DNA from: Naegleria gruberi
Lineage: Eukaryota
Length of the DNA stretch: 64,000 bases
Strand: one strand, 5' to 3'
NCBI GenBank assembly: GCA_000004985.1
Contig: GG738852.1
Below are positions 2,207-52,139 of this stretch, piece after piece. Below the pieces are notes generated by a model. The model saw nothing but the letters and a program-made list of their open reading frames with translations, was not told the origin of the DNA and did not search any database. Positions within the stretch are counted from its first letter, which is position 1. The number at the start of each line of letters is the position of its first letter. Made by a program: the position numbers and the translations under genes.

Positions 2207-3380
2207 ATGTCCAAAAAGCAAAGAATGGATCCACAAGGTTATCTCTTGGCCACTGATGAAATATCCGTTGTCCTATCATTCATCAATGATCACAAGACAT
2301 TAAATAATTTATCATTGTGTAACAAGGCCATACACAGTCAAATCGATCACATTGTGAATGGTTTGGTAGAAAGTCCACAGAAATTAATAGATTTTTGGAG
2401 AAGTAAATCGATTGATCCTGTTCTTGCATTCACCTATTTGAAGGAGACAAAAATCAAGTTACCATCCTATTCAGAAACTTTATTGAAATCATGCAATATG
2501 CATGTTGATTTGTTTTACAAAGCTTTCAAGTAAGTAGTTGTAGTATTGTTAATCATTATTTCACACATTTTAAAACCAAAACCTACTAAAATCATGATAA
2601 TGAAACAGTCGTTGTCCAGGAGGAAATGTTGATGCATTTATTCTAATGTGGAGACTTTTATTCACACATGATGAAGGACTCAAAGTTTGGCGTTGTTCTG
2701 CAAGAAACTGGGATGGCTCTTATTATGCATATAATCCATTTTGGAGTGAAGAAAAGAAGCCAAATTGGCCACAACTTTTGAAATGTATTATGAAGCAATC
2801 CATCAAGCATAAATCAGTTCTTTTCACCGAATTGATTCCTGAATTTGATAGTGATGAGTATGATACTGATTGGGCTCAAGTTCAAGCTCAAGTTTTTGTT
2901 AATAATGCCAAATTACTTGATTTTAAAAAGAAACTTGTAACAAACAAGAAGGAAAATACTAATCCAATCAAGACAGCTAAGAAATCTAAAAAGTCTAAAA
3001 AATCTGATACACCAACCTTAATTGACCACTCCAATCCATTAACTCTTCTAGATGAAATCAAAGAATTTTGTCAAGTCAAACTTCCTGTAAATGAATCAGA
3101 TGATTTTGAAGATGAGTATGGATCCATGTCAAAATCTGGAAAGGAGTTCAGAAGAGGTGCAAAATCAACTAGTCTTGCTGAAAATGATGGTGATTGTGAT
3201 GACGATTATCATGATGTTTTTGCATCTCATTTGGAAAATATTATTGAGAGAATTAAAAAGATTGAACCAGTTCCACCTAAACAAGTATTGAATCAAGATG
3301 ATGATGATCTAATGATAATGAAGACAATGATGAAGAACAAGATGAAGAGGAAGAGGATGAGGATGAATAAATCATCTTGA
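2207..3380 (+). CDS. Hypothetical protein with F-box-like N-terminus and acidic/lysine-rich C-terminus (2 exons)
   Basis: ORFs 2207..2533 and 2646..3380 join in frame through intron 2530..2608 (gtaagt..acag, 79 nt; phase 2). A-run before the ATG. N-terminal motif ISVVLSFINDHKTLNNLSLCNKAIHSQI. No other recognisable domain. Confidence 0.6.
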
Positions 3381-3475: not shown

Positions 3476-6400
3476 ATGAATAAATTGCGTTCTGTTGTGT
3501 CAAAGAAGAAACAACGTTACCAAAAGGAAGGTTTTGACCTCGACTTGACGTACATTAGTGATCGTGTCATTAGGTAAGTTTCTACTCGAAAGACAATAGT
3601 TTCGAATAAAGAATAGTATGGGTTTCCCTTCAACAGGTGCAGAAAGTTTGTACAGAAATCCTTTGGAAGAAGTAAAATCCTTTTTCCAGTCCAAACACGA
3701 CGACCACTACAAGATTTATAATTTGTGTTCGGAGAAGAATTATGATCCTAGTGTATTTTCGAATCGTGTTGCTAGGTAAGTTTCGAATAGAATAATAATA
3801 GTAACACCTTTTATAGATTCCCATTTGATGACCACAATGCTCCACATTTTTCATTAATTTTGGATTTTTGTGAAGGTGAGTTTAAAGTTTCGAATTGTTT
3901 GATGGAATTGTATAGATGCTTGTCGTTACTTGATGGAAGATAAACAAAATACTCTTGCTGTTCACTGTAAAGGTAAGTCTAAATTGCTATGAATTCATTC
4001 CATTGACATGTGACTTTAGCCGGCAAAGGAAGAACTGTATGTTTTTCTAATAGTATTTGAAAATTAATGTTTTAACAACAAAAAATATCCATTAACAATT
4101 ATCATCAACACACAACCGATATTTCATCATCAATCATACCAATTATGTCATTGCACAAATTTCTCTCTCAAATAGGGTACTATGGTTTCATCTTTGATGA
4201 TTTATACTGGTTTCTGCTCAACTGCATCCGAAGCTATGGAATTATTTGGTAGAATCAGATGTAATGATTCTAAAGGTGTGACTATTCCTTCTCAGAAGAG
4301 GTAAGTTTTGATGCATTTTTCTTCATTTACTAAAGATTTTCAATGTTAATCATTCGATCATTGTGAAATCTCTGAAATAGATATGTTCAATATTTTGAGG
4401 AATGTGTTGTTCATAGAGGAATGAGATTTCCAACAAAAGATGCGAAAATTACACTCAAAGCTGTTCATATGAATTCAGTTCCACACTTTGATAGAGATGA
4501 AGGAAGTGATCCATACTTTGTCATTCATCAACCTTTCTATGATAAGGAAACAAGAGATAATTATCGTATGGAAAAGTTATTTGATTATTCGGTAAGTTGA
4601 TCATTTTACATAATTTGCTGAAATTCACACAATTTGTAGCAAAATGAAAAAGTTAAACATTTAAAGAAGGGAGAGGAAGTTTGGATTAAAAATTTGAATA
4701 TTGACCTTTCTGGTGACTTTAGAATGATTTTCTATGATATGGATAAAGTCAAGAAGGATGAAAAAATGTTCATGCTTTGGTTGAATACAAACTTTTTACA
4801 CTTGCACCAACCTTACAATTCTTCCAATTCAATTCCACATAGAAAATTTTTGGGTCCTAATGATATTGTTGTTAGAATTCCAAAAGTTGAATTGGATAAA
4901 GCTGTAAAAGACAAGAAGAATCAAGCATTTGATGCTGATTTTTATGTTGACTTGATTATTGAAGTGAAGGAACCAAGTCAATATTCTGAACCACACAAAT
5001 TTGTGTACAATACACCAGACAGTGGAAAGGAATTGTTTGGAGAAATTCAACAATACGCTAAAACTGAAGCTTCAAGCAAGGAAAAGGAAAAAGCCAGAAA
5101 ACAATACGAACAAGGTAGAGAATTCTTTGCATTGAAACAATATTCCAATGCTGTTACATCTTTCTCGAATGCTATTTTGATTGATAGTGGATTTGAGGAA
5201 GCTTACATGTCAAGAGGTTTAGCTAACATGAATTTGAAACGTTTCCCTGAAGCAATTTACGATTTCACAACTGTTTTGAATATTCTGGCTAAGGGAACTA
5301 CAAGTTTGGGTGAAGATATTCCAATTCAAGATAGTATTACAATTACTTTAAGAGCATATCACTCCAGAGGTAAATGTCATACTAAAATGAAGGAATATGA
5401 ATTTGCCATCAAGGATTATGATAGTGCCACTTCAATTTTAGAACATGCTCAACATATTGGAAACGATGGATGTTCTACCACTACTGTATCCAACAATAAT
5501 CACTCTACATCTCCTTTCACTGATTCACTCTTCCAAACATTCTTTAGAGTTTATCTCGATAGAGGTCTCATTAACGATGCTCTTCAAAAATACTCTGACT
5601 GTATTATTGATTATACTAACTTTATCAAATATATGGATCCACTCTCTGAATCTCTAGTTGTTAAATTGAGAGAAGGTAAAATAACTGCAAACAAGTATGA
5701 ACAATACTTGTTTGAATTGTTCCAAGCCTTTTACAATAAGGCAATTGCTATTGGAAAGGTCGATAATTATCCTAACAAGGAAACTCAAGTATTCCATGAC
5801 TTGAACAAGGCAGTTGATTATATTGAAAAGATGTCTGACCCAATTAACAGTCCAGATGCTCTAGTATTTGGTCAAGTCTACCTTGCCAGAGGTGATAGAC
5901 AAACAGATAAGGAAGCTGCCATTAACGATTTCCTTAAATGTCTCTTATATGATAAGACTAACAGGATAGCTACAAAGAGATTGGCTGTTTTACTCTATGA
6001 ACAAAAGCAGTACAAGAGAGCTGTTCTCTATTTTTCAAAACTCATCAAGGATGAACCACAAAATGTCAAAATGCTTACCAATAGAGCTATTTGTTATTTA
6101 AAATTGGAACTTTATGAAAATGCCATTGTTGATTTTAAGGCAGCTCAGAATTTATCACCTGATACTATGAATTTATATGTACAATGTGCCAGATGCTACA
6201 GAAGAAAACACGAACTCTCAGACCCAGCTCAAATACCTCAAAAAGAATTGGAAGATTGTGAAATTCAATATTCAACAGCTATTGATTATCTTCAAAAGAG
6301 AAAGAAGGCAGCTACTCCATCCACTCCAAGCACACCAACTCTCTCTTCATCCTCAACTATTAAGGACGATGATCTTAAAACTCTCTACTTTGAACGTGGT

Positions 6401-6724
6401 ATGACTAGATTCGCTCTGAAAAAATACGAAAGTGCTATTCTCGATTATAGTCATTGTCTTGAACTCGACCCAAATCATTCCCTAGCTCTCTACAATAGAG
6501 CTTACACTCGTCAAAAATTCTTGAAACAATACGACAAGGCCATCACTGACTATGAACAAGTTCTGACCTTCAATTCATCTGATCTAAAGGCACGTCTTGA
6601 AAAGGGATGTTGCCTCTACTATTTAAAGAAAGATGAAGAAGCAATTATGGAATGGCAATTAGTATTGAAAAAAGATCCAAACAATGAAGCTGCCAAAGTG
6701 TATCTTTCCCAATTAGCTAAATAA
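3476..6724 (+). CDS. PTEN-type lipid/protein phosphatase plus C2 domain, fused to a long C-terminal TPR array (8 exons)
   Basis: Exons 3476..3573, 3617..3775, 3817..3875, 3916..3972, 4020..4036, 4176..4300, 4381..4591 and 4640..6724, all joined in frame by GT-AG introns of 43, 41, 40, 47, 139, 80 and 48 nt. The spliced product reads [42 protein letters not shown]...YKIYNLCSE...FPFDDHNAPHF...LAVHCKAGKGRTGTMV...KGVTIPSQKRYVQYF. This is collinear with human PTEN, including the HCKAGKGRTG P-loop. The last exon holds C2-like sequence followed by many 34-aa TPR-like repeats (e.g. AYMSRGLANMNLKRFPEAIYDFTTVLNI). Confidence 0.85.
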
Positions 6725-6808: not shown

Positions 6809-9800
6809 ATGAATAAACGACTAGAGGAATTTTCTCCTAAGCCAGTTGTTCGGAGCAGTAGAACAGCTGCTGCATCATCAAGTAATAGTAATATGGATGC
6901 TGATGATGATCAATTAATGGTAATTGATGAAAAAATCCTTCAAGAATTTAAACAATTTCACTCATCAGAAATGATTGAATATAATTCTAAAAAGTTTATT
7001 GAAAAGTATTGGAGCAATACACAAGAGAAGAACGAAAAGACCATGTATTTGGTAACCTTTTTACGTGATGTGATATATAAAGTACCAGAACATGAAGAAA
7101 AGGAATTACAAGTTTCGGAGAGGACACAAACAAACAGACAAAGATTAGAAGATTTGTTGGGAGGCTTGACCGGAGGAAATACTCCTACCATTAACAATTT
7201 TATGCAGCTATTGTCTGGATTGAGAGATCAACCAATGCCCATCACTACTTATTCTGAAGTTATAGTAAATCCTGATGAAACGGTAGAGATTGGATCCGAT
7301 TGGTTGTCTTGCTTGTTATGTTATGGACAAATGCAAAAGGAAGCACAGTACAAGAGAATATTAACAACAAATAGAGGAGTTTGTGGTAAAACTTGGACAG
7401 TTGGACAAATTGCATTCAAATGTAAAACTTGTCAGATGGATCCAACTTGTGCTATTTGTGAAGAATGTTTCAAGAAGGGAAATCATGAAGGACATGATTA
7501 TTCCATGACTAGAAATTCTAATGGTATGTGTGATTGTGGTGATGTTGAAGCTTGGAGTGTATCAGGTTTTTGTTGTGATCATACTGGAAGAAGTGATCCT
7601 CTGGCCCACTTGACCCCTGATTATTTGGAACTTTTGAAAGCCATCACCAAAGGATTATTCTCTAAAGAGGGTGTCATTAATAATTACATTCGAGAAATTA
7701 CAACCAAGTACAAATCGTTAAAAGATGAAGGTTCCAGAAAAAAGTCATTCCAACTGCAAACTCTCTACCAAAATTTCAAACAAGTTCTAGAAACTGTTTT
7801 GGAAAATTTTGATTCATCACCTTGTCTCAAAAAGTTAGCATATTTGGAACTTAAAGAGTTGAAAAAGGGATCGACGTCTCTAGATGAAATATTACTGAGC
7901 ATACCATCAATGACTCAACCAATCAAGTATTTGTATTCTGATATCTTTATGTCTTTCATAACAGACATTGATTTTAAAACATTTTTCTCGGAGAGATTTA
8001 TTGCTCATTACTCCATAATTATTGAAGACTACAAGGAATATTTGAAAACAAAAAATAAGGAAAATCGTGAAGATGATGAGAGAAAGTCAGTCCACATCTC
8101 TTCTCTTTCTGTTCAGCTATTAACTACTCCAACCGTAGCTGCCCACTTGATAGAAAATTGCAACTTGGTCTCAGTTCTTTTAGATACGTTAATAGAAACT
8201 GTAGAGGATGAATCTATAATGGATGAGACTAGAAATAATAGATTAGTTTATAATCCTGAAGCCAATTCTAAAAAAGTAGAAGCTCTGTATCATATCATTT
8301 TTGATATTAACTATTGTGTTATGCATCAAAAATTCAGTGATCATGTTTTACTCAATGAAGATTGCTACCACAAATTTTTAACATTCCTCTCCTATCTTCA
8401 AGCAACAATTGATATTAATAGAAAAGATAGCGATGACTCTCAATGGTATACGGCCTTCAATTTGGAGATGGGTACTTTACCTAAAATCATTAGATCCATT
8501 ACCAGTTTTATCGAAGGATATGCTAATGATTCAAAATATAAGACTATCCTCCGTCAATTAATTATGAATCTCAGCAAGATCATTTTGGATGATAACTTTG
8601 AAATTGAAACAGATGGTACTGTAAAAGTTAATCCATTCAATATTCCAATTACATACAACTTACCATTGCACAGGTTTGCAACAACCATATTCAAACAATT
8701 AATGTCAATATTCCCAACTGTTTCTCTCAAGTCATCTATTTCTGAAATTTTAGAACAAACATCACCAAACTCGCCACAAGTAACAAATCAATTCTTAATA
8801 CAGTTACTTGAACAGCCACTCAAAATTTTTGTTACTTCAGCCCAAATTACTGCTAGACTTTGGCAAAGAAATCATGAACATAGTAAGTAATTTAAATTTG
8901 AAAATCTTAAGATCAATTTTTCCAGTTCTTGAGCAATCTTATAATTATAATTCTGAAGCTTTTGGTGATTACACCTATTGTAATGACATATTCTTGATTC
9001 AAATTATTAGTGGACTCATGGATAATCATGATTTAATATTTAGAACACTTATCAAAAAGTTCAACAACTCCTTGGATGAATTGAAATTGTTTACCAAGGA
9101 AAAGCTAAAAGAAGATGAAGATAAAAGATCCATTTTGGAAGAAGAGTTTGCAAGACTCTTAGTTTGCATAAGTACCAACAGAGTATTTATGGATTCAATG
9201 AGCAACTTTGATATTTGTAGAAAATATGTTCTTCATTACTTGTTTACTGAGGAAAAATGCAAATTTTCAGATATTGTTTCGGCAGTTCCAAAATCCTTCA
9301 GAGCAGCTGGTATTGATCTCAAAGTTATTGTAAACGAAGTTGCTAATTTCCACAAGCCAAAAGGATCTCACGATCAGGGTTATTTTACTGTAAAATCAAA
9401 TTATTGGGATGAATTGGATCCATACTTTATTGGTATGAGCTCTCAATTATTTTATCAAGCTACAGAACAATACAAGACACAAACAGGGCTAAAACAACCT
9501 CCACCAATTTGTCTGGAAAAGCCAATATTTGCTGCCAATCAACAACTTGAAAGTGGGCTTACAGGATTAATGCTCAGTAATTCACTTTACAAGATAATTT
9601 TCTTTATCATGTATAGAACGATAATTTGGAGAAAGGATTCTAGCCAAGAACAGTTACCAGCTTTTGTTCTTCATTTACTCTTACTCTCACTGAATCATGT
9701 TCCTACTGGTACAGCAGAAGTTTCCCAAATAACTGTTCCTTCTAAACAATCCTTGCTCTCACCAATTAATAGTTATTTGGACATTCCATTTAAAGATGGT

Positions 9801-12080
9801 GAATCTCCAGTCAAGCTCATTCTTCGACCAATAGAAGATAGTGAAGGCAATGAATATTCTATCATTAGAATGCTTTTCGAATTTGGAAATCAAGGTGAAC
9901 TTGTTAATAAGATTTTCAATAGATTGATTGAATTGAACGAAGCTTGTGATAAAATTGTTGTTGAGGCTAGATTAAAGAAAGAAAACACCAGTAATAAGGA
10001 AGAGAAGGAAGCCAAGAAGAAGAGAGCTTTAGCCAATCGTCAAAAATTGTTGGAAAAGATGAATGCCAGTCAGAAAATGTTTGCCCAGAGCTTGGAAGAA
10101 GAGGAAGACACTGTTGACGATTCCGACAAATTGAAATGTGCCCTCTGTCATGACCACAAGTCACCAGAAGGAAACGAGTCTCTTTCTCTCCTCTGCCAAA
10201 TTGTTAACAACCCATTCCCTCAAATCACTAGAAACAAGGAAAATGTATCCCTCTTTGGAAATATTAGAAACAAACCAATTGTTGATATTGGAGAATTAAC
10301 AGAAGCATTTGCTGATGTCAATAAGGAACACAATGTTCAAATTAATTTCTGCTCTCATGCTTGCCATGCCGATTGTTTTGATAGATACTATACAAATCTT
10401 GTTCAAGAAGAATCTAGACGAAGAAGATTTAAAGGTTTTGGTCAAATAGATTTGGAAAGTATGGAAATACTCTGTCCAATTTGTTCTAGAGTGGCAAATT
10501 GTCTCTGCCCAATTGTTTCAAATCATGCCAATTTGCTCCAATCATCCAATTCTGTATCAACAGAATTACCATCACTTGAAACAATCGCTTCATTCATGAA
10601 GGATATTAAGGTTAAGGACAAGGCAGAAGATGTGAAAACTTCCACTACTCTTTCAACTATTTGTGAGAAAATTATTAATAAGAAGAAAGAAGACTTGGGT
10701 GATACTCTCGATCCAATGCCAGTTGATATTGAACCTTTTGAGTTGATTGATTCGGCATACTTTTCCAATACGTTTAGTTCGGAGATCGCTGTAGAGGAAA
10801 TACTTCAAAGAAGTCAACCACATTTACAAGTATTGCCTGAAGCAGTCAGAAAATCCCTCAGCCACGTATTTGGTCTTCTCATTTCATTCCAACAACTTAA
10901 TGAAAAGAATAGAGGAAAGACTCTTCAAGAAATTAATGCAGTAGTTGGTTCAATGATGGGCTTGAAATCCTATGCAAATTTGAGCCTTTATGATGAAGGA
11001 TTTAGAGAAAGAAAGATGTATCTTCCATTCTTGAGTGGAGACATGTTTACACTATTTGTGAGGTTAACAACCTTGCTTTTCTCATCTGAAAGAAAGATGG
11101 ATTCAGCAATGTTCAGAGATTTGTTAATGGTATTCTATACATCACATATCATTCAGATAATTATGCAATGCAACTTGAGACTTCAACAATCATTTAGTAC
11201 AGGCATTCCATCTATTGATAAGGAAATCTCCACAATAGAGAATATTCCAATATTTGAAAGATTTGAACTCAGAACCCTTGAAACTGACATTATTTTATCT
11301 GAAGATGAAATTGCTAAAATGTCCTGCGGTTTCTTAAGAAGAGTTGCTCTGTATTATTCGTTACTTTTCCCAGAAGAAGAAATTCCAACCTCAAGCTCTG
11401 AACATGTAAATTTGACGAATTATCTCCACCTTCCAACAGTAGATAACCTTTTGGTAATGATTAGAGAATCTAACCCTTATTCTGAGTTGATAACTAAATG
11501 GATTGATCAAGTTAAATTGTCCATGCAAAGTCTTTCAAAAGCCCTCAATGAAGAAACACAAGATGAAGATGATGAAGATTTGTATGCTAGTCAAGCTGAT
11601 TCTTTGATACCTTGCTTTGCAACTCCAAAACCTTTCAGCTTTATTGAGCTACCAAGATTATACGAAGATCTCATTCTCAAGCATAACAATGAAAGATGCC
11701 CACTCTGTTCCAAGAAATTGGAAAATCCTGCCATTTGTTTAATCACTGGAGAATTAGTATGGCTGAAGCAATGCACATGTGAGAAGCACATTTGTGGTAA
11801 GCTTACAAGATATACCAGGGAGAAATATTCTGGATTTGGACTCTTCCTTGTTATTAAATCATCGAGAATTTTGCTTATGCACGAAAGTAGATCAGGAATT
11901 TTGCATTCCCCATACCTAGATAGTCATGGAGAAGAAGATAAGAACCTTAAAAGAGGTGTTCCTTTATTCTTCCACAAAGAAAGACTCGATGAAAACATTC
12001 AAAAGTTAGGAAGAATGAATTGGGATCATGATACCATCATTTTGGAAAAATGTTCTAATTTGCAAACTCATGTTTTGTAA
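6809..12080 (+). CDS. UBR1/UBR2-type E3 ubiquitin ligase (N-recognin), 2 exons
   Basis: ORFs 6809..8890 and 8808..12080 join in frame via intron 8883..8925 (gtaagt..ccag, 43 nt, phase 1). UBR-box zinc finger CGKTWTVGQIAFKCKTCQMDPTCAICEECFKKGNHEGHDYSMTRNSNGMCDCGDVEAWSVSGFCCDH. RING-like region CALCHD...CSHACHADCFDRY...CPICSR. Cys-rich C-terminal UBR-type tail (CPLCSKKLENPAICLITGE...). Confidence 0.9.
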
Positions 12081-14122: not shown

Positions 14123-15298
14123 TCAATCACGATTATGGTGTGTTTTATGGTGTTGATGATGGTCAAGTACTTTTTCATTCATGGATTGGAAATTCATTTG
14201 GATGGAATGAAGGAGAGCTAGTTGTGCTCTTGTTCTGATGAGATTGTGTTGTGGATAGGTAGTTTTGTAATAGGTATCACCGTTGATGTAATCTGTTAGA
14301 AATCTCAATGCCTGCTCAAAGGTAATATACTTGGCACTGAAAGCTAGATATTCAATTTCGATATCTGTGAGGAATTTGTAACCCTCAGAGAGATATCCAT
14401 TGGTAAAGCTTTCGAATATGTCCATTTTGAGATGAATGTTTTGAGTATTTGGATCATCTTCTGTAGATGTGTTACAATACGAACGAATGGCATCTCCAAA
14501 ATCATTCAATACTGTACTGCACATTACAGTGTCAAGGTCAATTAAGCAACATGCCTTATTGGTCTCAGTATCGAATAAAATATTACTTAATTTCGTATCG
14601 TTATGAGTAATTCTCAGTGGAATTTTGTTACTTTCTACCAATTCCCAAAAATCAATCATTTCCTTTCTATAATTTTCCACAATTCCAATTTCATCTTTCA
14701 CTTCCTCCAATCTGTTAACAATATTCCTTTCAATGGCTTGATCAAATTGTTCAAATCTGAATTTAATATTGTGAAATCCAGGTAACACATCCTTAATAAT
14801 GCATTCTCTATTTTCATAGGTGATATTTCCATGGCTCTCAGAAACCAAATCAGAAAGCATATTCTGGAATTTTCCAATCATTTTACCTCCTTCAAACGCC
14901 AACTCTTCCGAATCAGCCTTTTCATGAGTAGTGGTATTTTCTATAAACTTAAACATGGTCCAATATTGAGAGTTTTCCGAATCTTGATTCTCAATCAATT
15001 TGTAAAATAATTTTCCATCATTGATGGTAGGAACAATAGAAAGAGTCTCCCTATCCGGATTTCCTCCCAATTTTGCAATTTTCCCTCTCAAATGTTCAAT
15101 CACGAGGGAAATATTATTCATCATGAGTTGAATGTTTTTAAATATTTTGTGATTCTTTCGTTGGAGAATGTATTTATTGTTCGGAGAGGGAATGTTAAGT
15201 TCTACCAGATAGGTATCATTGATGAGTCCACTCGGAATTGGTTCGATATTTATATTTCCAAGATTTGGACCTAAAAATTGGCTTACGATTTCATTCAT
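14123..15298 (-). CDS. APH-fold phosphotransferase, N-acetylhexosamine 1-kinase (NahK)-like, bacterial-type
   Basis: Single intronless ORF with an A/T-run before the ATG. Motifs IPSGLINDTYLV, ILQRKNHKIF, ITHNDTKLSNILFD (catalytic HxD....N), CLIDLDTVM, FGDAIRSY and RFLTDYINGDTYYK match, as I recall it, the bacterial NahK/LnpB-type kinase family. Confidence 0.7.
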   Translation of the reverse strand: MNEIVSQFLGPNLGNINIEPIPSGLINDTYLVELNIPSPNNKYILQRKNHKIFKNIQLMMNNISLVIEHLRGKIAKLGGNPDRETLSIVPTINDGKLFYKLIENQDSENSQYWTMFKFIENTTTHEKADSEELAFEGGKMIGKFQNMLSDLVSESHGNITYENRECIIKDVLPGFHNIKFRFEQFDQAIERNIVNRLEEVKDEIGIVENYRKEMIDFWELVESNKIPLRITHNDTKLSNILFDTETNKACCLIDLDTVMCSTVLNDFGDAIRSYCNTSTEDDPNTQNIHLKMDIFESFTNGYLSEGYKFLTDIEIEYLAFSAKYITFEQALRFLTDYINGDTYYKTTYPQHNLIRTRAQLALLHSIQMNFQSMNEKVLDHHQHHKTHHNRD

Positions 15299-15340: not shown

Positions 15341-16516
15341 TTATTCTTGATCATCTTCTGCTTGATAATTTTCATCATTAGCATCTTCCTCTTCGTAATA
15401 TTCATCATCTTCATCAATATCTTCCTCATAATCCTCATCATCATCTTCCTCATCTTCTTCCTCATCATCGTCATCATCCATGTAAAGTGAAATTGGTCTT
15501 CTAATTCCAATGAGAACTGTTTTCATTTGAGTGACAAAGGCAACATTATTGGCCTCATCTCCCTCAATGCAGAATGCAAGTGTGAAATCATCCGTCTTGT
15601 CTGAGATAAATTGATTCGTTTCAAAGGTATTTCTTTGTAAAATCAAATTGATAGAGTGTTTCTTTTCCTGCTCTGAAACATATTCCTGTAATTTGCTGAC
15701 ATAGAGACAAATTTCAATTATCTTTTCTTTGAGTTCCTTTTTAATGTTTGCATGATTGGCTTCAATACTGTCCATGAAACTTAAATATGATCTCGATGTC
15801 AAGTACCAAATCATTTTTGGAGTTGAAGTTGTAACATCATGTTTCGAATAGGAAGCACTCATACCAAGATTTGGAATATTTTGCTTTGGAATAATTGAAA
15901 AACTCAATGTAAATGTTGAGCTTTGTCCCATTCCCAAATCTTTTGTAACTTGTTGACCTTTAAATGTTGAGAGAAATCTGTTTTGAAACCAATTCACATG
16001 TTTGACTTGTTCCAAAGGATAATACCTCGATGCCAATTCAAATGCCTTGCTCACTCTCATCATTTGAATGATTTCTCTCAATGTAAGAAATGGAAATATG
16101 TGATTATTAATAATTTTGAATGGAATTTGCTTTTTACAAATAGAATACTTTAACTTTTCAAGATCGGACCTGAAAGATTCATGATTTTGTGTTTTCTTTC
16201 TTTCCTTGATGAGTGATGATCTCATCTGACGAGCAAATTCTTCAATTTTTCCAATATTTAATTTTCTGTCTTCTGATGATGAGGTTTCGTCTGTTGGATT
16301 TTCGTTTTCTTGTTGAGGAGGATTGGCTGCCTCTTCATTATCGTCATCATTGGTTGATTCGTCATCTCGGGATTTAGTTTTCAACATGTCGTTGAATAGT
16401 TTCTCCTTCTCATGATATTCCTTTAGTCTTTGTTCAGTTTCTCCTAACAAATCACTATCGAATAAATTTTCAAAATTACCCAGAAGAGAAAGGTTCTTAA
16501 ATTGTTGTGGAAGCAT
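15341..16516 (-). CDS. Hypothetical protein with an F-box-like segment and an extremely acidic C-terminal tail
   Basis: Single ORF with a genuine ATG after an A-run. Internal motif IINNHIFPFLTLREIIQMMRVSKAF. The C-terminus DDDDDEEEDEEDDDEDYEEDIDEDDEYYEEED is low complexity. Confidence 0.55.
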   Translation of the reverse strand: MLPQQFKNLSLLGNFENLFDSDLLGETEQRLKEYHEKEKLFNDMLKTKSRDDESTNDDDNEEAANPPQQENENPTDETSSSEDRKLNIGKIEEFARQMRSSLIKERKKTQNHESFRSDLEKLKYSICKKQIPFKIINNHIFPFLTLREIIQMMRVSKAFELASRYYPLEQVKHVNWFQNRFLSTFKGQQVTKDLGMGQSSTFTLSFSIIPKQNIPNLGMSASYSKHDVTTSTPKMIWYLTSRSYLSFMDSIEANHANIKKELKEKIIEICLYVSKLQEYVSEQEKKHSINLILQRNTFETNQFISDKTDDFTLAFCIEGDEANNVAFVTQMKTVLIGIRRPISLYMDDDDDEEEDEEDDDEDYEEDIDEDDEYYEEEDANDENYQAEDDQE

Positions 16517-43290: not shown

Positions 43291-45258
43291 ATGTCGAAAC
43301 ACAATTTGCTACTGTTATTACTATTAATACTGCTATTTATCCATGTCTATCACAGTGACTTGGTTACATGTCAAAGCAGTATCGATGTCAAGTATAAAAT
43401 AACAACTTTAGTGAGTGGAATTTCAGCTGATGGTAGAATTGACCAAGGATTAAATGGCGATATTTACTTTACTGAAAAAGTTGATAATTACATATCCAAG
43501 GCCAATATCAAAACAGGAATAGTTACACGACTCATTGGCACAGGTATTGGTGGATTCAATGGAGATGGATTATTAGCCAATTTGACACAAGTCAACTCGC
43601 CAAAAGGAGTTTCAATTTCTCAAATAAGTGGTGACATTTATTTTGCAGATTCGTCTAATAATTTGATCAGAGTAATGAATGCTGCAACGAATATTGTATC
43701 CACCATTGCTGGAACTGGTTCTTTTGGTTTCAGTGAAGGAAATGCCACATCCAGCAAGTTAAATAAGCCAACTGAACCAGTTTATTGGAATGGTCAATTG
43801 TTGTTTGCTGATTCGTTGAATTATAGAATTAGAAAGGTGGATCTTTCGAATGGAATGATTTCTACCTTGACAGGAACTGGAATTTCTGAATTTAATGGTG
43901 ATGGATTGGCATTGATTGTTTCAATTACTGAAATTCAGGCATTGACAGCAACTTTGAATGGAGATTTATATTTTGCAGATTCGGATAGTTTTAGAATTAG
44001 AAAATATATTCAATCGACAAAATCTGTAATTACATTGGTTGGCTCCACCAATAATTATAGAGATGGATTGGTCAACCAATCACTTTTGAGTTATCCAGAA
44101 GGTGTTTCAGTAGCTTCAAATGGAGATGTCATATTTAGTGATAATTCTAATCATGTTATTCGAAAGATTTCCATTTCTAAGGGTATGGTATCAACCATTG
44201 CAGGTACTGGAAGTGCAGGAGCTGCAATTGACAATGTGGATGCTACCAATTCTCCAATGCAGTTTCCTTCAGGTGTTTTGGTCAACTCACAAGGAATTAT
44301 TTATGTGAATGATAATGATAATAATCGAATTAGAGTATTGACACCGTATTGCAGTGATTCGAATTATGAATTGATTGATGGAGTTGTTTGTAGAATGAAA
44401 AATTGTTTTGGAATTGCAATTAATGAGTCAACTGTGTGTTCTGGACATGGAAAATGTAATTCGGATAATAATTGCACGTGTTCTTTTGGATATTCTGGTA
44501 ATGATTGCTCAATATTGGATGCGTGCTCACTTTTTACTAGTAATTATGCATGCTCATCAAGTTTTAACACGAGTGAGACTAAATTGCTTACAGTTTCGAA
44601 TATTACACAACTAGATTCGTCGATTATTCAATTTTCATCCACTAGTTCAATTTCAATTTCACTTCCTTCCTCAATTTCACAATATTTACAAGCCACAGAT
44701 ACAAACTTATCCAATGAAACCATTTCAGTACTGAGTTTACTTTCTGCTAACAATGCCAAAGATTCCAACTTGGTTTCTCCAATAGTTTCGTTAACTTTAT
44801 ACAAATCCAGCACAAAATCTGAAATCCAAATTCAAAATCTCAAAGATCCAATTTCAATCCAATTCCAAATCAACACAACTGTACCATCCATCTCATCATT
44901 GAATATCACATGCTCGTATTTCAATGAAATTCAAAAACTTTGGATTTCAGATTCGACCATCAAAACAATAATTTCCAAAATTGATACAATTAACACTCTC
45001 TCAGATGGAAATGTAACAATTTCTGTTTCATTGAATTGTGAAACGAGTCACTTGACTTCATTTGGAATAATCGATCAGAATTATAAGAAAGCAAATAAGG
45101 AATCTCAAACCAAAGATGATTCAGTCATGTTACAAGATAATACTACTGTATTAATTGCTGCAATTGTTGGAAGTGTTGGTGGATGTTGTGTTTTGGTAAC
45201 TATTCTCGTGATCATTATTTCAGTTATCATTCTATTAAGAAGAAGACATAAACATTAA
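43291..45258 (+). CDS. Type-I surface protein: signal peptide, six NHL repeats (beta-propeller), EGF-like module, S/T-rich stalk, TM
   Basis: Six NHL-like blades: GDIYFTEKVDNYISKAN, GDIYFADSSNNLIRVMN, GQLLFADSLNYRIRKVD, GDLYFADSDSFRIRKY, GDVIFSDNSNHVIRKIS and GIIYVNDNDNNRIRVLT. EGF-like CSGHGKCNSDNNCTCSFGYSGNDCS. TM LIAAIVGSVGGCCVLVTILVIIISVIILL followed by RRRHKH. Confidence 0.8.
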   Translation: MSKHNLLLLLLLILLFIHVYHSDLVTCQSSIDVKYKITTLVSGISADGRIDQGLNGDIYFTEKVDNYISKANIKTGIVTRLIGTGIGGFNGDGLLANLTQVNSPKGVSISQISGDIYFADSSNNLIRVMNAATNIVSTIAGTGSFGFSEGNATSSKLNKPTEPVYWNGQLLFADSLNYRIRKVDLSNGMISTLTGTGISEFNGDGLALIVSITEIQALTATLNGDLYFADSDSFRIRKYIQSTKSVITLVGSTNNYRDGLVNQSLLSYPEGVSVASNGDVIFSDNSNHVIRKISISKGMVSTIAGTGSAGAAIDNVDATNSPMQFPSGVLVNSQGIIYVNDNDNNRIRVLTPYCSDSNYELIDGVVCRMKNCFGIAINESTVCSGHGKCNSDNNCTCSFGYSGNDCSILDACSLFTSNYACSSSFNTSETKLLTVSNITQLDSSIIQFSSTSSISISLPSSISQYLQATDTNLSNETISVLSLLSANNAKDSNLVSPIVSLTLYKSSTKSEIQIQNLKDPISIQFQINTTVPSISSLNITCSYFNEIQKLWISDSTIKTIISKIDTINTLSDGNVTISVSLNCETSHLTSFGIIDQNYKKANKESQTKDDSVMLQDNTTVLIAAIVGSVGGCCVLVTILVIIISVIILLRRRHKH

Positions 45259-49922: not shown

Positions 49923-52139
49923 ATGTTTCTTCGTCGTATGATTAATGCCATCTCACAATCATCAGAGTCTGGCAAATCTGATAATTCGGCCTATGCTCTC
50001 AATATTGACCATATGGAAATACCTATAGAGGAGTGGAGTCATAAAGTGGTCACATGTTTTTTGTATAAGGAACAATTTTTCGAATTAATTCCCAAAGTTA
50101 CGAAACTGAAATATGAAGGTGTTGATTTTCTGACAAAAAACAAGGAACAATTGACTGCCGAGTTGAAAGTACATGAAGACGAAATTACTGAGTTGATGGC
50201 TAGAATCGAAAGTGTAAAAGTGAAACAAAAGTATTATTCGAAGGCTAATAGATTGACACTTTCAGAGACAGATACAGCAGATATTAATTCTCAACCAGCA
50301 GTTGGAGACCCATCATCGCCAAACAATACTTCAAACGGAATTGCCATCAAAAACAAACCAATCGATTCAACAAGAAATATGTCAGGCTCGCCGAGTGCAC
50401 AAACTTTATCTGCATCACCAATGAATGGAAGTAGAGTTCCTCCACCTGGCCTCACTGAATTGGATAGACAGAGGAGAGGCACTGGGTTGGAGAGGGGCAA
50501 ACTTCCAAGCTCTCCAACAGGAGCAACCTCTCCTTCGAGCTCATCAATTTCACCACCAGCATCATCATCAGGAGAAGCACATTTAAATATTAGTAATATT
50601 CAACTTTTGAAAATTGTGGAATCATTTAAGAGACAACTCAAGGAAAATGATCTTCTCGCAGAAAGATCATACCGACTCAATAAGTATAAGAATACATTTA
50701 CTGGAAGCGATGCAACCACATTATTGCATAAATTGATGAGAGATGTGGCAAAATCTGCAACGAGATTCGATGCCATTGATTTGGGAAATGCAATGATAAG
50801 AGATGGATTCATAAAACATGTTGCCGAAGATGAAGACTTTAAAGATGAGCCAGGTCAATTGTACTTTATTTCCGACGATCCTAGAGCAAGAGACAGTTTG
50901 AACTTGAATAATAAGAAGGGAAGTTCTGCATTCTTTGCCGAAGAGGACAGATCCATCACCAAAGATATAATGACACCTGCAGCTACTGATTTAATTTATA
51001 GAGGTGATTGTGCCTCCAAGATGATTGTACTGATTAAGAATACAGACACTTTGCTCGAGTCTTTAATTTTCCAAGCAGGAATGCTCAATGATAAGGAGAA
51101 GAAGACATTGGAAGCCGTTACTAAAAAGCTCAAAAACTTGAACTATCCTGTCCCAGAGGTTCAAATTAGTTTGGTAGCTCAAGATTTGAGTTTGTCAGAG
51201 AGATACTTGTACAGTTATTTGAATCCAAACAGAATTCCAAGAGCTAAGAAGACTCTTTTGCAAGAAAAATCATGTGGAAAACAATTTATGGATATTGGAT
51301 TGGCCTTGACATGTACAGAAGGATTGGCTGGAGAATTTTACACTTTCGCATTAATTGTAGGAACATTTATTGTGGAATTTTCGGATAGATGTCATTTGGC
51401 ATTGGTAAGAGAAAAGGATTCGAGCTTTGTCAACTTTTTCCATATCACAACTATCAATGATAAGGAAAATATCGAATTGTGCTTAAAAACAGTTAGTAAG
51501 TGCTGTGTAAAGTGGAATGAAAAACCAGTTGCAAAGAATATCAACTCTAAAACTTTTGTAACTGAACTTTTCAGATGGATTGACATTCCTGAAAGTGTGA
51601 TTGAAACTGTTGCCTCAGATATGGACTTTATATCAAACTATCCAATCAACTCAAAATCACTCTTCTTACAAAAGGGACAACTGGAAGAAATTTACAAAGT
51701 ATCCGAGACTGTAGAAATTACTTCATCACTTCAAACACTTCTCAGTCAAATTACCAATCAAACCATTACATTCTACAAACATTCTGATTTGGCTGAATTC
51801 TACTTGATTGCATCCCACCTTTTGAATCCTGTTCAAAAACTTCTCATTTCCTCCTTTGCCAAGACATTTATGAGACAATTCAATGAGGGTATTAATTTAC
51901 CAAACTCTGAACCAATGTCCTACAAGGCAGCAAAGAAAATAACCAAAGAGAGATTATGTAAAATAGATGATGTTTTTACATGCCCATTTAAAGGTCATGG
52001 AATTTGCACAAAGAATGTAAAATATCCAAAAGCTGCAAATAGTGAAAACGAAACTCCAGTCCAATCTGAAAGCTCTCCTTCCGATTCTCTGACCTACCAA
52101 TACTTCCCTTGTAACATTTCATTACCTACCAGACAATAG
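49923..52139 (+). CDS. DEP-domain signalling protein
   Basis: Single 738-aa ORF with an A-run before the ATG. DEP-like segment RSYRLNKYKNTFTGSDATTLLHKLMRDVAKSATRFDAIDLGNAMIRDGFIKHVAEDEDFKDEPGQLYFI. An S/P-rich linker lies upstream. The C-terminal half is unassigned. Confidence 0.65.
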   Translation: MFLRRMINAISQSSESGKSDNSAYALNIDHMEIPIEEWSHKVVTCFLYKEQFFELIPKVTKLKYEGVDFLTKNKEQLTAELKVHEDEITELMARIESVKVKQKYYSKANRLTLSETDTADINSQPAVGDPSSPNNTSNGIAIKNKPIDSTRNMSGSPSAQTLSASPMNGSRVPPPGLTELDRQRRGTGLERGKLPSSPTGATSPSSSSISPPASSSGEAHLNISNIQLLKIVESFKRQLKENDLLAERSYRLNKYKNTFTGSDATTLLHKLMRDVAKSATRFDAIDLGNAMIRDGFIKHVAEDEDFKDEPGQLYFISDDPRARDSLNLNNKKGSSAFFAEEDRSITKDIMTPAATDLIYRGDCASKMIVLIKNTDTLLESLIFQAGMLNDKEKKTLEAVTKKLKNLNYPVPEVQISLVAQDLSLSERYLYSYLNPNRIPRAKKTLLQEKSCGKQFMDIGLALTCTEGLAGEFYTFALIVGTFIVEFSDRCHLALVREKDSSFVNFFHITTINDKENIELCLKTVSKCCVKWNEKPVAKNINSKTFVTELFRWIDIPESVIETVASDMDFISNYPINSKSLFLQKGQLEEIYKVSETVEITSSLQTLLSQITNQTITFYKHSDLAEFYLIASHLLNPVQKLLISSFAKTFMRQFNEGINLPNSEPMSYKAAKKITKERLCKIDDVFTCPFKGHGICTKNVKYPKAANSENETPVQSESSPSDSLTYQYFPCNISLPTRQ

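Follow-up and report, generated by a model that had tools for sequence, protein, structure and literature searches.

The phosphatase PTEN hydrolyses the 3-phosphate of phosphatidylinositol 3,4,5-trisphosphate (PI(3,4,5)P3 or PtdIns(3,4,5)P3), and its membrane contact is made through an N-terminal basic motif and the C2 domain. Tetratricopeptide repeat (TPR) solenoids use their concave face to bind peptides or partner proteins. In human and animal PTEN (PDB 1d5r, 7jvx) the phosphatase and C2 domains are followed by a phospho-regulated tail of about 50 residues with a PDZ motif. Ci-VSP and TPTE combine a voltage sensor with PTEN, and PTEN-formins have been described in plants and stramenopiles (PMC2386819, PMC8296547). 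Such multidomain PTENs, including other protist fusions, share one principle, namely a catalytic-C2 cassette joined to a targeting or regulatory module. Here we describe a gene of Naegleria gruberi, at positions 3476 to 6724 on the plus strand of a 64,000-nucleotide stretch of contig GG738852.1 (assembly GCA_000004985.1; hereafter the window), whose protein joins a PTEN phosphatase-C2 module to a TPR or TPR-like solenoid. We call it PTEN-TPR.

Two other described systems are close to this arrangement. Protein phosphatase 5 (PP5) is likewise a phosphatase covalently linked to TPRs, and its TPR domain is a structural neighbour of the C-terminal block of the Naegleria array. However, PP5 carries its TPRs, three in number, at the N-terminus and has a Ser/Thr PPP fold and a clamp for Hsp90, whereas the Naegleria protein has 12 C-terminal hairpins and a Cys-based PTP fold and lacks the clamp. 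In the TTC7-PI4KIIIalpha-FAM126-EFR3 complex, a phosphoinositide enzyme is placed at the plasma membrane by a long TPR solenoid, although that enzyme is a kinase and the solenoid belongs to a separate subunit. TTC7B was found among the Foldseek matches of the Naegleria array (rank 20), a match that is generic to TPR solenoids.

The PTEN module

The N-terminal part of PTEN-TPR is collinear with PTEN. In a search of solved structures, aa 4-359 aligned with human PTEN structures (E 3.8e-65), and this alignment reaches residue 358. A residue-by-residue alignment to human PTEN shows 40% identity across 362 aligned positions. The earlier note on this DNA, made from the letters and their open reading frames (ORFs), had recognised the collinearity but put its length at about 330 aa; it is about 355 aa. 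Ci-VSP and TPTE2 were the next-best structure matches (about 1e-55 to 1e-57), and auxilin was far weaker. PTEN-TPR resembles Ci-VSP and TPTE in consisting of the PTEN cassette and an extra module, and the VSP structures match at E 4e-57. Pfam searches of the spliced protein returned each domain type that the earlier note had named: dual-specificity and PTP-type phosphatase models at aa 69-158, PTEN_C2 at aa 193-350 (E 2.4e-19, 69.8 bits, cut-off 27.1) and TPR_1 (117.8 bits).

The active site is that of PTEN. The P-loop HCKAGKGRTG is identical to that of human PTEN, with C123, K124, K127 and R129 corresponding to PTEN C124, K125, K128 and R130. D91/H92 of the WPD-like loop correspond to PTEN D92/H93, and the TI loop is represented by T166, I167 and Q170. 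In the residue alignment PTEN D92, H93, H123, C124, K125, A126, G127, K128, G129, R130, T131, T167, I168, Q171 and R173 are all conserved. All catalytic residues that were checked are intact, and the sequence gives no sign of a dead enzyme.

The membrane-contacting elements are also largely present. The N-terminal motif RSVVSKKKQR is mostly kept relative to human PTEN (K6->R, R11->K, K13->K, R14->Q, R15->R), so that R5, K10, K12 and R14 of the Naegleria protein are retained and only PTEN R14 becomes Q. The basic patches of the C2 domain are partly retained in the alignment to human PTEN, and the C2 internal loop is shorter than in human and animal PTEN. In an AlphaFold2 (AF2) model of the Naegleria lovaniensis orthologue, the C2 domain is a confident beta-sandwich. 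Thus the phosphatase and C2 core, the P-loop, the WPD-like Asp/His, the TI loop and most of the basic motif are shared with human and animal PTEN. The difference lies behind the C2 domain: the metazoan phospho-tail and PDZ-binding motif are absent, and after aa ~352 the protein continues into a linker and a TPR solenoid of 550 residues and ends with QLAK.

The linker and the TPR solenoid

The linker is well conserved, 16 of 35 residues being invariant across four lineages. Behind it, the earlier note had seen a run of TPR-like 34-mers of about 550 aa. The array does occupy aa 386-936, but it is no uniform run of 34-mers. It comprises 12 predicted helical hairpins, a cap helix and three disordered loops, and eight of the 12 hairpins are recognisable TPRs, the other four being long and divergent. 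Pfam TPR_1 matches the protein in eight separate stretches (E 7e-35, 117.8 bits, cut-off 27.8), and numerous other TPR models match too. When the hairpins were scanned singly against Pfam, units 1, 2, 3, 7, 8, 10, 11 and 12 matched TPR models and the longer units 4, 5, 6 and 9 had no TPR match. An AF2 model of aa 355-936, computed with four Naegleria sequences as the alignment, predicts a continuous right-handed alpha-solenoid (mean predicted local distance difference test score, pLDDT, 83; predicted template modelling score, pTM, 0.69). The nearest folds in structure comparison are peptide-binding TPR solenoids. We conclude that the C-terminal half is a TPR or TPR-like solenoid that is non-uniform in repeat length. 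A recent internal DNA duplication is ruled out as its origin, there being no tandem DNA repeat of TPR-sized period.

The C-block, which consists of the last three TPRs, has its closest sequence and structure matches in the TPR domains of SPAG1, RPAP3, SGT, HOP/STI1, PP5, Cns1 and Tom70. This closeness to co-chaperone-type TPR domains could mean that PTEN-TPR is a chaperone-coupled phosphatase, in which one block of three TPRs binds the C-terminal EEVD of Hsp70 or Hsp90. However, the C-block keeps two of the five clamp positions (K->F, N->M, N kept, K kept, R->E; RPAP3 TPR1 alignment), and by inspection the N-block has R and S at the clamp N, N and R positions. The clamp positions are those that we take from HOP TPR1, mapped through the RPAP3 alignment. 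With two of five clamp residues kept, we rejected an identity as EEVD-clamp co-chaperone, and chaperone coupling appears very unlikely.

Gene structure and the junction

The eight exons join in frame into a coding sequence of 2811 nt, from the ATG at 3476-3478 to the TAA at 6722-6724. Intron length ranges from 40 to 139 nt; the 5' ends read GTAAGT, GTGAGT or GTATGT and the 3' ends AG. Upstream of 3476 there is no further in-frame ATG within the open frame, and the N-termini of the orthologues start with the same MNKLRSVVSKKK. ORFs on the minus strand beneath the gene are all at most 79 aa. The region is AT-rich (G+C ~30-36%).

The active-site P-loop is interrupted by two introns around a micro-exon of 17 nt. 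This micro-exon, with its AG and GT flanks, is kept in all four Naegleria lineages: its equivalents lie at ~597-613 of an N. gruberi-type metagenome contig (L002), ~4200-4216 of the Naegleria fowleri locus (L003), ~1071-1087 of that of a metagenomic Naegleria (L005) and ~5760-5776 of that of N. lovaniensis (L006, PYSW02000004.1). In Willaertia magna, a close relative of Naegleria (locus L001, JBEGDK010000159.1), the P-loop coding sequence is intronless. The intron at 4592-4639, between codons 242 and 243 (DYS|QNEK), lies inside the C2 domain and is conserved in the orthologous loci.

The last exon opens at codon 243, within the C2 domain, and is free of stops through the linker and the entire TPR array up to 6724, just as the earlier note had read it. 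The note had further argued that the junction is no artefact of splicing, and this is borne out by the orthologues. In five lineages, namely N. gruberi, N. fowleri, N. lovaniensis, the metagenomic Naegleria and W. magna, the C2-to-TPR junction lies within a continuous ORF, and at all four loci other than that of N. gruberi the PTEN exons lie immediately 5' of a long exon with the second half of the C2 domain, the linker and TPRs (tblastn). The N. fowleri protein XP_044559738.1 (FDP41_005778, 943 aa, annotated as 'uncharacterized protein') is collinear and 77% identical end to end and is gapless at the exon junctions. The genes around this locus cluster with FDP41_005777 and FDP41_005780. For N. 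fowleri, annotation relied on BRAKER1 with RNA-seq guidance (PMC6831594), so its one-gene model gives indirect transcript support for a single gene.

In N. lovaniensis, the annotated protein (875 aa) is without ~65 residues of the TPR array because the assembly changes frame twice, at 7198 and 7413 of L006. The coding sequence for these residues is present in the assembly (tblastn).

The Willaertia magna locus

The W. magna locus is annotated as two adjacent genes. The first encodes PTEN, C2, linker and TPR1-2, and the second encodes the rest of the TPRs. The coding homology extends 5' of the ATG of the second gene. One ORF is in frame 0 and the other in frame 2, and they share ~30 nt (7731-7763) in an A/T-rich, Asn-coding low-complexity stretch with an A5 run, where a single added base would join both frames. 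A canonical intron that unites the ORFs and preserves the homologous residues was sought there, and none was found. A second frame change, from 2 back to 0 (the first being from 0 to 2), occurs at ~8990-9015, at the equivalent of the Ser/Thr/Pro-rich loop. Both breaks fall in A/T-rich stretches that code for Asn or Ser/Thr and match disordered loops of the Naegleria protein. Indels left in the assembly could account for the frame changes, as could a real fission of the gene. The assembly GCA_041937235.1, if it is T5(S)44 of PMC11702301, was polished with short reads and annotated with RNA-seq, and real fission in Willaertia is possible for that reason. Fission or not, the sequence places the junction between C2 and the first TPRs in one ORF in W. 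magna as well.

The two annotated genes in W. magna, whose annotation used RNA-seq if the genome is that of PMC11702301, might also be taken to mean that the fusion is an artefact of the gene model, or that PTEN-C2 and TPR products are made as separate halves through internal polyadenylation or an internal promoter. We consider this extremely unlikely, since no lineage shows a stop codon that would separate C2 from the TPR array, the first gene of W. magna itself has the linker and TPR1-2 in the ORF of C2, the homology reaches 5' of the second ATG and both breaks of frame lie in low-complexity sequence. In addition, the linker is conserved (ratio of non-synonymous to synonymous substitution rates, dN/dS, 0.047), and the RNA-seq-guided model of N. 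fowleri is one gene.

Selection on the last exon

Between N. fowleri and N. lovaniensis (dS ~0.47), dN/dS is 0.047 for the C2 half, 0.047 for the linker and TPR N-block and 0.089 for the remaining TPRs. The TPR part is therefore under purifying selection in the same range as C2. Identity to N. fowleri is 90% in the phosphatase domain, 80% in C2, 77% in the linker, 89% in TPR1 and 91% in TPR2; TPR2 retains 69% identity to Willaertia. Constraint is strongest in those units of the array that adjoin C2. A comparison within N. gruberi, of the last exon with metagenome contig L002, shows 13 differing codons, of which 10 are synonymous and three conservative non-synonymous (V/A, I/V and S/P, the S/P in a loop). 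The low dN/dS and the high identities indicate that the TPR part is translated in this frame and functionally constrained.

Distribution

The combination of PTEN with TPRs, for which the earlier note had suggested a survey of eukaryotes, occurs in Naegleria and Willaertia but in no other PTEN among the 120 top homologues found with the full protein. The other protist PTENs in this set carry PH, protein-kinase, RGS, DEP, EF-hand, myosin-TH1, family-3 7TM or ion-transport/voltage-sensor domains. The multidomain PTENs among them differ from the Naegleria protein in being without TPRs. In protists the PTEN catalytic-C2 cassette thus appears to combine with many different domains. The formins of N. 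fowleri that carry PTEN-like domains are a separate matter (PMC8296547).

The database includes the proteomes of N. fowleri and N. lovaniensis, yet the same 120 homologues contained no further PTEN of Naegleria or Willaertia at 241 bits or more. Judged from these matches, PTEN-TPR is probably the closest-to-canonical PTEN of the two genera.

The TPR array was also searched on its own, with HMMER run exhaustively on aa 375-936 against 1.84 billion cluster representatives. Two matches only were collinear in a single stretch, namely the Naegleria cluster and, at 47% identity and E 2e-105, the second gene of W. magna, and no collinear relative outside Naegleria and Willaertia was found among these representatives. 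The remaining matches were generic TPR matches in several stretches, chiefly to the three C-terminal repeats. Literature searches found no paper describing a PTEN-TPR fusion, and the orthologues in public databases are uncharacterised predictions only. PTEN-TPR is a Naegleria/Willaertia-specific variant of an enzyme family that is known for accessory domains in protists.

The gene seems to be unannotated in N. gruberi, because a collection of 15 billion protein sequences contains neither the spliced protein nor the ORF of the last exon. No N. gruberi protein was found among the homologues of PTEN-TPR, and the only match of at least 99% identity to the N. gruberi protein is a last-exon ORF of a metagenome contig. 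Other genes in the window, at 43291-45258 and 49923-52139, exactly match N. gruberi XP_002680686.1 and XP_002680687.1, which identifies the strain of the window as NEG-M.

Proposed function

The reading that we consider likely, from the sequence and the predicted structures, is that PTEN-TPR is an active PI(3,4,5)P3 3-phosphatase and that a protein partner, bound by the TPR solenoid, mediates its recruitment or regulation. The PTEN module of ~355 aa would remove the 3-phosphate of PI(3,4,5)P3 at the plasma membrane. A linker of 33 residues leads from C2 into the solenoid of 12 hairpins and cap helix, which stands in the place of the metazoan tail. The solenoid would bind a partner protein or peptide and may thereby set the place or the time of phosphatase action. 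According to the earlier note, a TPR scaffold built into the protein would imply that the enzyme is recruited or regulated in another way than PTEN, and the lack of the metazoan phospho-tail and of the PDZ-binding motif makes this a reasonable idea.

Several points weigh against this reading. Definite evidence for PtdIns(3,4,5)P3 is lacking in such protists (PMC3823935). The Hsp70/Hsp90 EEVD clamp is not conserved in the TPR array. The gene is apparently absent from the N. gruberi NEG-M reference gene set, and the W. magna annotation splits the locus after TPR2. The full-length AF2 model, made for the N. lovaniensis orthologue from an input that contains a faulty segment, has a pLDDT of 83 and confident single domains, but with a pTM of 0.52 it does not resolve where the TPR part lies relative to the catalytic face.

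The lack of definite evidence for the lipid (PMC3823935) also bears on the substrate. The enzyme might have other 3-phosphoinositides or phosphoproteins as its main substrates, or be mostly a scaffold. PTEN is known to have protein phosphatase activity, which we count in favour of such a different job. On the other side, K125, K128 and the TI loop, which shape the PI(3,4,5)P3 pocket of PTEN, are all conserved, and a class I phosphoinositide 3-kinase, which would supply the substrate, has been reported in N. gruberi (PMC3823935). A job of this kind is in our view improbable.

Another possibility is that the solenoid is an intramolecular gate. The TPRs, perhaps together with the Ser/Thr/Pro-rich loops, would cover the membrane-binding face and keep the enzyme autoinhibited until a ligand binds or phosphorylation occurs. 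Such a gate would substitute for the phospho-tail switch of animal PTEN and would be akin to the TPR autoinhibition of PP5. It would fit the absence of the metazoan tail from a protein that ends with QLAK, the strong conservation of TPR1-2 and the linker, which lie beside C2 and are the best-conserved part of the array, and the presence of PP5-type TPR domains among the structural neighbours. The disordered loops rich in Ser, Thr and Pro (aa 519-536 and 802-815) are candidate phosphorylation sites, but they are poorly conserved. Furthermore, the full-length model shows no confident packing between domains (pTM 0.52, from the orthologue with the faulty segment). We regard the gate as unlikely. 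A broader evolutionary idea, which we also hold to be doubtful, is that the main and possibly only canonical PTEN of Naegleria and Willaertia traded the phospho-tail switch for a TPR solenoid, which either gates the enzyme in the manner of PP5 or tethers it to a cortical partner.

Feature coordinates and neighbouring genes

The features of the gene are collected in Table 1.

Table 1. Features of the PTEN-TPR gene and protein, in positions of the window
Feature	Position	Strand	Basis
Whole gene, 936 codons + TAA	3476..6724	+	Splice model; collinear with N. fowleri XP_044559738.1
Eight exons	3476-3573, 3617-3775, 3817-3875, 3916-3972, 4020-4036, 4176-4300, 4381-4591, 4640-6724	+	Splice model
Phosphatase domain, aa 1-185, exons 1-7	3476..4420	+	Pfam, structure search, PTEN alignment
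N-terminal polybasic motif RSVVSKKKQR, aa 5-14	3488..3517	+	Counterpart of the phosphatidylinositol 4,5-bisphosphate (PI(4,5)P2)-binding motif of PTEN, by alignment
P-loop HCKAGKGRTG, aa 122-131, across exons 4, 5 and 6	3963..4178	+	Splice model and PTEN alignment
17-nt micro-exon CCGGCAAAGGAAGAACT, P-loop core (A)GKGRT	4020-4036	+	Required by the reading frame and the invariant P-loop
PTEN-type C2 domain, aa 186-352	4421..4969	+	Pfam PTEN_C2 and PTEN alignment
Linker, aa 353-385, motif FGEIQQ[YF]AK, predicted helix aa 368-382	4970..5068	+	Conservation and AF2
TPR N-block: TPR1 aa 388-423, TPR2 428-459, TPR3 471-518	5069..5467	+	AF2; each unit matches Pfam TPR_1/TPR_2 alone
Short disordered loop within the N-block, aa 462-468		+	AF2
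Disordered Ser/Thr/Asn-rich loop, aa 519-536 (516-536 in the AF2 model)	5468..5521	+	pLDDT <50; 33-40% identity
Middle block: divergent long hairpins 4-6, aa 538-586, 592-638, 649-679	5525..6313 (whole middle block)	+	AF2 helices
Middle block, continued: canonical TPR7 aa 684-713, TPR8 718-747, long hairpin 9 752-800	5525..6313 (whole middle block)	+	AF2
Disordered Ser/Thr/Pro-rich loop PSTPSTPTLSSSST, aa 802-815	6317..6358	+	pLDDT <50; low conservation
C-block: canonical TPRs aa 818-851, 856-886, 891-920, capping helix 925-935	6365..6721	+	

A gene for a UBR1/PRT6-type N-recognin E3 ligase (6809-12080, plus strand; zf-UBR, UBR1-like winged helix, PRT6_C) begins 84 nt past the stop of PTEN-TPR. 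In N. fowleri and N. lovaniensis the neighbours are an amidase gene downstream and a DEP-domain gene upstream. These are unlike the neighbours in N. gruberi, so local synteny varies within the genus. The upstream ORF at 2646-3380 (plus strand) has no Pfam match and an unusual Met/Lys/Arg-rich C-terminal tail (3290-3380). An alternative frame over its end gives the acidic tail NDNEDNDEEQDEEEEDEDE with a TAA stop at 3368-3370, which suggests an unmodelled small intron or frame change near 3305. Farther away, the ORF at 14123-15298 (minus strand) has an aminoglycoside-phosphotransferase/choline-kinase-like domain (Pfam APH, E 3e-12). Its neighbour at 15341-16516 has the same length (391 codons including the stop), and the two were considered as paralogues; they are unrelated, and this was rejected. 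No tRNA genes were found within the 64-kb window.

Significance

Extra domains are common on protist PTENs and TPRs are generic adaptors; the find is useful for the cell biology and the annotation of Naegleria rather than surprising in kind. One practical consequence is that surveys of the N. gruberi proteome would report no canonical PTEN, because the gene seems to be missing from the reference set.

In crawling Dictyostelium cells and neutrophils, the back and sides of the cell are set by PTEN. For the evolution of amoeboid motility Naegleria provides an independent model, and the genus includes the lethal pathogen N. fowleri. Should PTEN-TPR be the PTEN on which Naegleria relies, the way it is regulated departs from the textbook model of tail phosphorylation and PDZ binding. 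If the solenoid acts as a gate or a tether, PI(3,4,5)P3 polarity in a fast-crawling non-amorphean amoeba would be wired through a lineage-specific scaffold, which would have no counterpart in the human enzyme and would be present in the pathogen N. fowleri as well. Since the human enzyme is without a TPR array, the array may offer selectivity. It may also serve as a handle for finding the partners of PTEN in an excavate amoeba.

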